From the NCBI RefSeq assembly GCF_054482525.1, contig NZ_CM137006.1: 64,000 nucleotides of DNA. One strand, written 5' to 3'. Shown here one piece after another: positions 2,237-44,479 of this stretch. The notes under the pieces are model-generated. The model made no database searches. It was not told the DNA's origin and saw only the letters and a program-made list of their open reading frames with translations. The first letter of the stretch is position 1. Each line of letters begins with the position of its first letter. The translations under genes and the position numbers were made by a program.

Positions 2237-2252
2237 TGTAGCTGCGTGCTGA

Positions 2253-2288
2253 TGCCGGATGCGTCGTGGACGTCTTACCCGACCTGCA
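2253..2288. repeat. REP (repetitive extragenic palindromic) element, degenerate
   Basis: gatgccggatgcgtcgtggacgtcttacccgacctgc resembles the REP consensus GCCGGATGCG...CTTATCCGGCCTAC; intergenic artM-artJ. Confidence 0.55.
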
Positions 2289-2311
2289 TAGTGCATAAAT
2301 TCTTATAATGA

Positions 2312-2348
2312 AGACGGACAACTCACTAAGTTGTCCGTCTTTTTTTAT
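2312..2348 (+). terminator. Intrinsic terminator downstream of artM
   Basis: Hairpin agacggacaactcactaagttgtccgtct followed by a T run. Confidence 0.75.
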
Positions 2349-2461
2349 TTCATTTAAATTATTTAATCATATTTATTGCATATAAATTCACTTGATGGCA
2401 TTGTTATCCCATGCCGCAGACACGGCCAAAAATCATAAGATTGACAGACGGGAGTTCCATC

Positions 2462-3193
2462 ATGAAAAAGTTAGTTCTTGCCGCTTTACTTGCTTCCTTT
2501 ACTTTCGGTGCTTCTGCCGCAGAGAAAATCAATTTTGGCGTTTCAGCCACCTATCCCCCCTTTGAATCTATAGGTGCTAATAATGAGATTGTCGGCTTTG
2601 ATATCGACCTGGCAAAAGCCTTGTGCAAACAAATGCAGGCAGAATGTACTTTTACTAATCACGCGTTCGACAGCCTGATCCCGTCACTGAAATTCAGAAA
2701 ATATGACGCCGTAATCTCCGGTATGGATATCACCCCGGAGCGTAGCAAACAGGTATCGTTTACCACGCCCTACTATGAAAACTCAGCCGTCGTGATTGCC
2801 AAAAAAGATACCTACAAAACGTTTGCCGATCTGAAAGGCAAACGTATTGGGATGGAAAACGGTACTACGCACCAGAAATATATTCAGGATCAGCACCCGG
2901 AAGTGAAAACTGTCTCCTATGACAGTTATCAGAATGCCTTTATCGATCTGAAAAATGGTCGTATTGATGGGGTATTTGGTGACACAGCGGTGGTTAATGA
3001 ATGGCTGAAAACCAACCCGCAACTGGGCGTTGCGACTGAAAAAGTGACCGATCCGCAATACTTCGGCACCGGCCTGGGTATCGCTGTACGTCCGGATAAC
3101 AAAGCTCTGCTGGAAAAACTGAATAACGCGCTGGCAGCAATTAAAGCTGACGGTACATATCAGAAAATCAATGACCAGTGGTTCCCACAGTAA
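2462..3193 (+). CDS. artJ: Arginine-binding periplasmic protein ArtJ
   Basis: ATG at 2462 (MKKLVLAALL...) gives 243 aa; paralog of ArtI; separate transcription unit after the artM terminator. Confidence 0.9.
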   Translation: MKKLVLAALLASFTFGASAAEKINFGVSATYPPFESIGANNEIVGFDIDLAKALCKQMQAECTFTNHAFDSLIPSLKFRKYDAVISGMDITPERSKQVSFTTPYYENSAVVIAKKDTYKTFADLKGKRIGMENGTTHQKYIQDQHPEVKTVSYDSYQNAFIDLKNGRIDGVFGDTAVVNEWLKTNPQLGVATEKVTDPQYFGTGLGIAVRPDNKALLEKLNNALAAIKADGTYQKINDQWFPQ

Positions 3194-3197
3194 GATT

Positions 3198-3228
3198 CAG
3201 AAAGCCGCACCTGCGGCTTTTTTATTGC
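3198..3228. terminator. Bidirectional intrinsic terminator shared by artJ and rlmC
   Basis: Hairpin aaagccgcacctgcggcttt flanked by A/T runs between convergent genes. Confidence 0.7.
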
Positions 3229-14912: not shown

Positions 14913-14992
14913 GCCACTGCTTTTCTTTGATGTCCCCATTTTGTGGAGCCCATCAACCCCGCCATTTTGGTTCAAGGTTGGTGGGTTTTTTG
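14913..14992 (+). ncRNA. rybB: RybB small RNA (sigmaE-dependent repressor of outer-membrane protein mRNAs)
   Basis: gccactgcttttctttgatgtccccattttgtggagcccatcaacc...ggttggtgggtttttt matches the RybB sequence as I recall it; 3' hairpin plus U tract; lies between ybjL and rcdA as in K-12. Confidence 0.85.
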
Positions 14993-15010
14993 TTGCCTGA
15001 AATTTATCTA

Positions 15011-21004: not shown

Positions 21005-21716
21005 ATATCCTCCGGCATAGCCGGAGGTTTTTCAAATGCGCCTATAAGGCTCTCTTACCAGCCGCGCCCTAACAGGCGCACACGATCTGACATTTGCATC
21101 CAACTTCGTTACTTACGGCCCGTAAACGGGCTGCCCGGATAGGGAATCGATAACTGCTCTCCCATTTTATCCTCTTCAAGCTGGTGCTTTATGTAATCCT
21201 GTATCTTCGCCGTGTTCTTACCCACCGTATCGACGTAGTACCCTCTGCACCAGAACTCCCTGTTCCTGTATTTGAATTTCAAATCACCAAACTGCTCGTA
21301 AAGCATCAGACTGCTTTTCCCTTTCAGATATCCCATAAAGCCGGATACGCTCATTTTGGGCGGGATCTCCACAAGCATATGGATATGATCTGCACAGCAT
21401 TCAGCTTCCAGAATCCGTACACTTTTCCACTCACACAGCTTTCTCAAAATACTGCCTATTGCTCTACGCTTCTCTCTGTAGAACACCTGTCTTCGGTATT
21501 TTGGCGCAAAAACTATGTGATATTTACAGTTCCATCGGGTGTGCGCTAAGCTCTTTTCGTTCCCCATTGGGACCCCCTTTTGATTTCTTGTTTGACACTT
21601 GCAGTTGCCAGACCGCAAGGTGTTTTAACAAATCAAAAGGGGTTTTAATAACTGGCTTAAAGCTGAAAGCTTTCCGGAACCCCCAGCCTAGCTGGGGGTT
21701 TTCTGTGCACAATAAC
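21005..21716 (-). mobile_element. IS200 insertion sequence (IS200/IS605 family); ends approximate
   Basis: Encodes an IS200 TnpA; upstream of tnpA lie a perfect palindrome (aacccccagcctagctgggggtt, 21678-21699) and a second stem-loop over the ribosome-binding site; fills almost the whole deoR-dacC intergenic space. Confidence 0.8.
21109..21567 (-). CDS. tnpA: IS200 transposase TnpA (HUH/Y1 single-strand transposase)
   Basis: MGNEKSLAHTRWNCKYHIVFAPKYRR...HIHMLVEIPPK... 152 aa, intact. Confidence 0.92.
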   Translation of the reverse strand: MGNEKSLAHTRWNCKYHIVFAPKYRRQVFYREKRRAIGSILRKLCEWKSVRILEAECCADHIHMLVEIPPKMSVSGFMGYLKGKSSLMLYEQFGDLKFKYRNREFWCRGYYVDTVGKNTAKIQDYIKHQLEEDKMGEQLSIPYPGSPFTGRK

Positions 21717-43663: not shown

Positions 43664-44479
43664 ATGAGCGTAAAAGTTATCGTCACAGACATGGACGGTA
43701 CTTTTCTTAACGACGCCAAAACGTACAACCAACCACGTTTTATGGCGCAATATCAGGAACTGAAAAAGCGCGGCATTGAGTTCGTTGTCGCTAGCGGTAA
43801 TCAGTATTACCAGCTTATTTCGTTCTTTCCTGAGCTAAAGGATGAGATCTCTTTTGTCGCGGAAAACGGCGCACTGGTTTACGAACATGGCAAGCAGTTG
43901 TTCCACGGCGAACTGACCCGACATGAATCGCGGATTGTGATTGGCGAGTTGCTAAAAGATAAGCAACTCAATTTTGTCGCCTGCGGTCTGCAAAGTGCAT
44001 ATGTCAGCGAAAACGCCCCCGAAGCATTCGTCGCACTGATGGCAAAACACTACCATCGCCTGAAACCTGTAAAAGATTATCAGGAGATTGACGACGTACT
44101 GTTCAAGTTTTCGCTCAACCTGCCGGATGAACAAATCCCGTTAGTGATCGACAAACTGCACATAGCGCTGGATGGCATTATGAAACCCGTTACCAGTGGT
44201 TTTGGCTTTATCGACCTGATTATTCCCGGTCTACATAAAGCAAACGGTATTTCGCGGTTACTGAAACGCTGGGATCTGTCACCGCAAAATGTGGTAGCGA
44301 TTGGCGACAGCGGTAACGATGCGGAGATGCTGAAAATGGCGCGTTATTCCTTTGCGATGGGCAATGCTGCGGAAAACATTAAACAAATCGCCCGTTACGC
44401 TACCGATGATAATAATCATGAAGGCGCGCTGAATGTGATTCAGGCGGTGCTGGATAACACATCCCCTTTTAACAGCTGA
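43664..44479 (+). CDS. ybiV: HAD-family sugar phosphatase YbiV (SupH)
   Basis: 271 aa; paralog of YbjI in the same window ([14 protein letters not shown]). Confidence 0.9.

Follow-up and report, generated by a model that had tools for sequence, protein, structure and literature searches.

The window analysed here is a stretch of 64,000 nucleotides that opens inside the artPIQM operon. The 3' end of artP, the complete genes artI, artQ and artM, and artJ all lie on the + strand and, together with rlmC, fill the first 4.4 kb. The genes and the intergenic region of interest are as follows.

Start of window, + strand: 3' end of artP (ORF list)
114-845, + strand: artI (ORF list)
852-1568, + strand: artQ (ORF list)
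1568-2236, + strand: artM, the last artPIQM gene, with a TAA stop codon at 2234-2236 (ORF list; RefSeq annotation of the PCN033 locus)
Between 2236 and 2462, + strand: artM-artJ intergenic region, 225 nt (sequence)
2462-3193, + strand: artJ, arginine-binding protein gene, its own transcription unit (RefSeq annotation of the identical locus; ORF list; PMC6640053)
3222-4349, - strand: rlmC, convergent (ORF list)

A 501-nt probe spanning the artM-artJ site shows 100% identity to E. coli PCN033 and is found in 5424 of 5426 complete E. coli genomes, with flanks annotated as artM and artJ every time. The artJ gene and the artPIQM operon each have their own sigma-70 promoter and both are repressed by ArgR (PMC6640053, citing Wissenbach 1995 and Caldara 2007). 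The mechanical ORF of artJ opens at an in-frame ATG at 2411, 17 codons 5' of the annotated start at 2462. The real start is placed at 2462 because a GGGAG Shine-Dalgarno sequence is found there and a signal peptide follows directly. The artJ promoter was reportedly mapped by Caldara in 2007. Window positions 2237-2350 are the 3' untranslated end of the artPIQM mRNA, and the following elements can be distinguished between the two genes.

2254-2287, + strand: decayed Y-type REP, single copy, starting 17 nt 3' of the artM stop codon (consensus match, orthology, fold)
2288-2309, + strand: A/T-rich spacer between REP and hairpin, CATAGTGCATAAATTCTTATAAT (sequence; nearly invariant among E. coli alleles)
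2310-2342, + strand: predicted terminator stem-loop with a 14-bp stem, core 2313-2339 and a 5-nt loop at 2324-2328 (terminator scan, fold, covariation)
2340-2350, + strand: predicted terminator U-tract, T7-A-T3 (sequence)
2354-2392, + strand: predicted artJ operator (pattern search, spacing, PMC6640053)
2354-2371, + strand: putative weaker ARG box 1, 4 mismatches (reading made in this analysis)
2375-2392, + strand: ARG box 2, 1 mismatch to the consensus (pattern search)

The sequence-only reading of this region had described a degenerate REP palindrome followed by a strong hairpin and a T run, together closing artPIQM before artJ. A consensus terminator scan lists 2310-2342 as a terminator-like site with 14 pairs, in agreement with the second part of that description. 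The hairpin consists of GAAGACGGACAACT / loop CACTA / AGTTGTCCGTCTTT, and its G+C-containing core corresponds to 2313-2339. The T-run occupies 2340-2346 and is followed by an A and by TTT at 2348-2350; the first three T of the U-tract are also paired at the foot of the stem (A-U/G-U foot pairs). The RNA of 2310-2342 folds with -21 kcal/mol (z = -7.4), a stability not reached by any of 200 dinucleotide shuffles; the hairpin on which the reading depends is thus a strong one. The full 116-nt artPIQM 3' UTR has a fold z-score of -4.6. The stem begins 73 nt 3' of the artM stop codon and lies upstream of the artJ promoter region. Four features expected of an intrinsic terminator are present in the sequence: a stable G+C stem-loop, a U-tract, a sense-strand position 3' of the last stop codon and structural conservation. 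No Rfam family reaches its gathering score in the artM-artJ region. Low-scoring Rfam miRNA and sRNA matches over the hairpin were rejected as generic hairpin matches.

Conservation was assessed by anchoring on ArtM in one genome per bacterial species, which gave 80 Enterobacteriaceae loci, 78 of them with artJ directly downstream. When a terminator is defined as a hairpin with a folding energy of -12 kcal/mol or below in front of at least 5 consecutive T, 75 of these 78 artM-artJ loci carry one (dinucleotide shuffles: 11/1560, 0.7%). The covariation set comprises 63 distinct aligned hairpin sequences. Of the 437 cells at the seven core pairs, 434 hold a standard pair, a percentage that is inflated because each species is represented by its best hairpin before the T-run; as this choice does not create compensatory changes in aligned columns or the contrast with shuffles, the caveat is limited to the percentage paired. 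Double compensatory changes occur at five of the seven core pairs, in 20, 24, 1, 15 and 17 sequences, and include G-C to A-U (in 20), A-U to G-C (in 24 and 15) and C-G to U-A (in 17). The covariation score is 0.34 compared with 0.198 for column shuffles (0/500 reach 0.34), and slid registers score at most 0.17. Core G·U pairs outnumber A·C combinations by 25 to 2 in the 63 sequences, so the pairing is kept on the + strand (artM-sense) RNA and not on the opposite strand. It is this compensatory conservation, together with the scan and the fold, that bears out the hairpin and T run of the sequence-only reading.

T-run length is 6-10 (median 7) among the 63 related sequences, and the interval between the end of the T-run and the artJ ATG hardly varies (mode 118 nt). 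Between the artM stop codon and the stem there are 8 to 143 nt; most genera have 20-30 nt, and large values are confined to loci with a REP-type insertion (Escherichia, some Citrobacter, and Salmonella enterica subsp. arizonae and diarizonae). Within E. coli, one-sided stem mismatches occur in single strains. Judged from these alignments, it is the hairpin that is conserved and functional, and the REP was inserted in particular lineages. Two relatives, Escherichia sp. MOD1-EC7003 (L013) and Enterobacter sp. kpr-6 (L065), have no recognisable terminator, which suggests that it is dispensable in some backgrounds. In L013, where the intergenic region is 429 nt, the last ~50 nt of artM and the REP are tandemly duplicated to give three REPs, and a weakened stem is followed by a broken U-tract (TCTTTCCTCATC). 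In the 309-nt intergenic region of L065, a G+C-rich palindromic repeat (CCCTCTCCC...GGGAGAGGG, with GGCCGGGGTGAGGG) takes the place of the terminator in several copies. The hairpin and T-run are absent from this locus, and the artJ ARG box and 5' UTR are kept.

Immediately downstream, the artJ promoter, operator and 5' UTR (window 2351-2461) are very strongly conserved across genera. Conserved blocks in this segment are TTAATCAT, TTGCATATAAATTCA, TGGCATTGT, CATGCCGCAGACACGG and the C/A-rich ATAAGATTGACAGACGGGAG before the start codon. TGGCATTGT is possibly an extended -10 element (2396-2404), in which case TTGCAT at 2376-2381 may be the -35. The C/A-rich leader resembles the type of site used by GcvB-type sRNAs on other binding-protein mRNAs. 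ARG box 2 begins 28-31 nt from the end of the T-run in 62 anchored loci and the window (29 nt in the window). The putative ARG box 1 begins 7 nt beyond the predicted transcript end; both this box and its 21-bp register to ARG box 2 are probable. The position of ARG box 2 after the T-run, together with the separate promoters of the two units (PMC6640053), is consistent with the earlier proposal that the hairpin closes artPIQM before a separately transcribed artJ.

The second element of the 3' UTR is found between the artM stop codon (2236) and the predicted terminator (2310). The REP-like sequence 2254-2287, GCCGGATGCGTCGTGGACGTCTTACCCGACCTGC, is identical to the Y-REP consensus (GCCGGATGCGGCGTGAACGCCTTATCCGGCCTAC) at 28 of 34 bases. 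An ungapped search of both strands of the 64-kb window with three REP consensus forms, allowing up to 9 mismatches, returned this match only; by our own estimate, the chance expectation of such a match is ~4e-7 per window. REP consensus searches limited to 3 mismatches gave no match in the window, which fits the term "degenerate" used in the sequence-only reading. A second TGCCGGATG, at 44121, was considered as a REP and rejected, as it sits in ordinary non-REP sequence. The window REP aligns base for base with intact Y-REPs found at the same position in other E. coli strains, in line with the degenerate REP of the sequence-only reading. The intact orthologous Y-REPs fold with -21.3 and -22.7 kcal/mol (z -3.7 and -3.9); the window REP reaches -9.8 to -16.6 kcal/mol, a stability matched by 56-82 of 200 shuffles (z -0.2 to -0.5). 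At -9.8 kcal/mol (z -0.5), the structure is a weaker alternative hairpin in a non-REP register. Two of the changes in the window REP fall on one inner-stem pair (G:C to T·T), and two break the outer stem. In addition, the CTAC (GTAG) foot has become CTGC, the window having CCTGC versus CCTAC in the intact copies. This GTAG/CTAC foot is reportedly a recognition feature for the REP-associated transposase, a point attributed to Ton-Hoang/Messing in 2012.

Thus, two features of a Y-REP are present (the consensus match and the extragenic, transcribed position) but two are missing (the stable stem-loop and the GTAG/CTAC foot). The REP of the window strain is decayed and has lost its stem-loop. It is probably an inert remnant with little or no effect, because its fold is lost and a strong hairpin lies 22 nt downstream. 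As a BIME consists of two or more REPs in alternating orientation, the single REP of the window does not form one. A sub-threshold Rfam match to naRNA4 (RF02564) covers 2244-2284 on the minus strand (23.9 bits; gathering score 59.5). Among the low-scoring Rfam matches, this one alone is meaningful because the family is REP-derived. The similarity of the window REP to naRNA4/REP325-derived RNA is weak, the family being built from REP units; the window REP is not a member, since it scores far below the gathering score and contains one degenerate unit only.

The REP content of this site differs among E. coli strains. When the window is aligned with K-12 and a further seven E. coli strains, the artM-artJ spacer falls into two length alleles. 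The long allele has 65-66 extra bases, which form an inverted Z1-type REP beside the Y-type REP (a BIME). The short allele has the Y-REP alone, and this copy is intact in most short-allele strains. K-12 MG1655 (NC_000913.3, 900,576-900,865) has the same genes, hairpin, artJ operator and 5' UTR as the window. Its hairpin differs from that of the window in one loop-closing base, and its T-run is one T shorter. It has 65 bp more, containing an inverted Z1-type REP and an intact Y-type REP (BIME), whereas the window keeps the Y copy only, with six substitutions relative to the K-12 copy. According to the alignment, removing the 66 bases that separate two direct TGCCGGATG repeats turns an MFDS1019527-type long allele into the short allele, and a short-repeat deletion is therefore the simplest origin of the latter. 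The indel site corresponds to window 2237-2253 in comparisons with K-12 (L001), L004, L005 and L010.

At a coverage of at least 80%, the BIME probe is present in 3410 of 5426 complete E. coli genomes (~63%), and the genomes lacking the BIME mostly have a single Y-REP. When the K-12 BIME from the artM-artJ locus is used as the query, it is found at a median of 7 places per E. coli genome. The window allele (88 nt, 2225-2312) is present in 136 of the 5426 genomes at 99% identity or more and in 295 at 95% or more (~2.5-5%). E. albertii (L016) has the reverse order, Y followed by inverted Z1, and other genera mostly have no REP at artM-artJ. The locus is therefore a clean example of REP/BIME turnover, with variants ranging from a two-REP BIME through a single or a decayed REP to no REP. 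This turnover is confined to the slack between stop codon and terminator, and the terminator and artJ operator are fixed. It is a textbook illustration of such turnover rather than a discovery. The K-12 RefSeq annotation has no repeat feature at artM-artJ; as it has none over 40 kb either, this silence is uninformative. There is no artM entry in the accessible part of the RepRanger supplements, and full-text literature searches combining artM with REP terms returned nothing relevant. A TGCATAA(A) motif is found 12-25 nt 5' of the terminator stem, at 2291-2299 in the window and also in L017, L018, L022 and L026. It recurs in Escherichia, Citrobacter and Salmonella, with or without a REP, and resembles an ARG-box half-site; the full ARG-box spacing is absent.

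Taken together, these data indicate that artPIQM very probably ends at a canonical intrinsic (Rho-independent) terminator that shields artJ, with the REP as an accessory remnant. The proposed mechanism is as follows. Once transcribed, the RNA of 2310-2342 would fold into a hairpin of 11 to 14 bp, followed by U7-A-U3. The rU:dA hybrid is expected to be weak, such that the hairpin would pull the transcript out. The predicted RNA 3' end is at approximately 2345-2349, leaving 5 to 9 nt to the ArgR operator and ~30 nt to the artJ promoter. Termination at this point would both end the operon and shield the arginine-regulated artJ promoter from upstream read-through. The hairpin would also give the artPIQM mRNA an exonuclease-resistant 3' end. 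The REP would be what is left of a mobile repeat, lodged between stop codon and hairpin as the only place where it is tolerated. If this is correct, the hairpin marks the 3' boundary of the artPIQM transcription unit, and artJ would be insulated from artPIQM by a terminator that is conserved across the Enterobacteriaceae. The main use of this result is correct annotation.

In comparison with known systems, nothing essential differs between the artPIQM hairpin and canonical E. coli intrinsic terminators. Like these, it has a G+C stem-loop followed by a U-tract of 7 to 9 nt, is located after the last stop codon on the sense strand and shows compensatory conservation. With 14 bp, three of them A-U/G-U foot pairs formed with the U-tract, the stem is on the long side, and the hairpin is, as predicted here from sequence, unusually close (7 nt) to the operator of the next gene. 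The accessible parts of the supplementary text of eLife 2021 (PMC7815308) and TERMITe 2025 (PMC12207403) contain no entry for artM or artJ. REPs fold into exonuclease-resistant structures and are associated with 13% (22/174) of mapped E. coli intrinsic terminators (PMC6061677). The combination of REP and terminator is thus ordinary, in line with the sequence-only reading, which had called the arrangement typical. REPs and BIMEs are also found in the binding-protein-dependent transport operons hisJQMP and malEFG (Stern 1984 and Newbury 1987, cited in PMC6061677). The Y-type REP of the window is similarly extragenic and transcribed, and lies in an amino-acid ABC-transporter operon. The hisJQMP and malEFG REPs have intact stem-loops that stabilise the upstream mRNA and are often positioned between cistrons; unlike these, the window REP is single, is situated at the operon end before the terminator and has lost its stem-loop.

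Several other explanations of the hairpin were considered. The terminator might be leaky and serve as a partial attenuator, with substantial read-through from artPIQM giving an artPIQMJ message and with ArgR, 7 nt downstream, as a possible roadblock. Such an arrangement would suit the common orientation of the five genes, the tiny gap of fixed length between terminator and artJ operator, the single stem mismatches tolerated in natural E. coli alleles and the broken U-tract of one Escherichia lineage (L013). However, a perfect U7 behind a stem of 11 to 14 bp places the hairpin in the strong terminator class, the structure is tightly conserved in 75 of 78 species and artJ is treated as its own unit in the literature (PMC6640053). 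Leakiness of this kind is unlikely, and would add to the intrinsic-terminator reading and not replace it. The fixed spacing of 28-31 nt could also mean that terminator and ArgR operator work as one unit (arginine-dependent coupling of artPIQM and artJ, modulated by ArgR) or that a terminator fragment is kept as a small 3'-UTR RNA, but either is quite improbable. A related and even less probable alternative is that the segment from REP to terminator, or the terminator alone, is a stable, 3'-UTR-derived, Hfq-binding sRNA with its own targets. Modules bound by Hfq usually consist of a strong terminator hairpin and a long U-tail, and the 22-nt spacer 5' of the stem is nearly invariant in E. coli. 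Outside Escherichia, however, the sequence 5' of the stem is short (8-30 nt) and variable, and no Rfam family scores at the gathering level. Moreover, in the accessible part of a RIL-seq-based prediction table (Bar 2021, PMC8175672), artM appears only as a CDS node (score 6e-5, label 0) and there is no artM 3'-UTR node.

The 3' end of artPIQM could alternatively arise by trimming, in which case the hairpin would be a protective stem-loop to which exonucleases cut back Rho-terminated transcripts from further downstream. Many Rho-dependent transcripts of E. coli do end at stable stem-loops, with REPs enriched nearby (PMC6061677). This explanation is nevertheless highly unlikely, because a U-tract of 6 to 10 nt is conserved right after the hairpin in the 63 sequences, a feature that characterises intrinsic termination and that a trimming barrier would not require, and because the artJ promoter and operator are within 10 to 30 nt, leaving no room for Rho utilisation and a release zone. 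A role for 2310-2342 as DNA, i.e. as a palindromic protein-binding site or a cruciform, has almost no chance of being correct. The inverted repeat is near-perfect and its two strands fold alike (-21.0 and -20.8 kcal/mol), but the stem sequence varies freely across species with pairing kept, and the T-run is on one side only. The DNA-level palindrome was rejected on the G·U versus A·C asymmetry in the core (25 to 2), as G·U pairs form only on the + strand RNA. Finally, the window REP may still be functional: it could stabilise the mRNA or be bound as DNA by gyrase, IHF or the REP-associated transposase. In favour of this, 28 of the 34 consensus bases are retained, the weaker hairpin of -9.8 kcal/mol can still form, and the same allele occurs over 88 bases (2225-2312, at least 99% identity) in 136 complete genomes. 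A function is doubtful, though, given that shuffled sequences fold equally well (z -0.5), that the G:C to T·T change, the two outer-stem breaks and the CTAC to CTGC change affect the stem and foot, that the 3' end is already protected by the strong hairpin 22 nt downstream and that there is only one REP, hence no BIME.

Some further RNA features of the window were observed. A second terminator-like hairpin (3199-3222, AGAAAGCCGCACCTGCGGCTTTTT, 10 pairs) directly follows the stop codon of artJ. On its 3' side it finishes where the rlmC ORF ends (stop codon at 3222-3224 on the minus strand), and it may serve both artJ and rlmC. Two Rfam matches at gathering level, both unrelated to the artPIQM terminator, are found elsewhere: the Hfq-binding RNA STnc490 at 21577-21700 on the - strand (146.1 bits) and the sRNA RybB at 14916-14994 on the + strand (104.8 bits). 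The K-12 map has rybB at the expected distance from artJ, in agreement with the RybB match.
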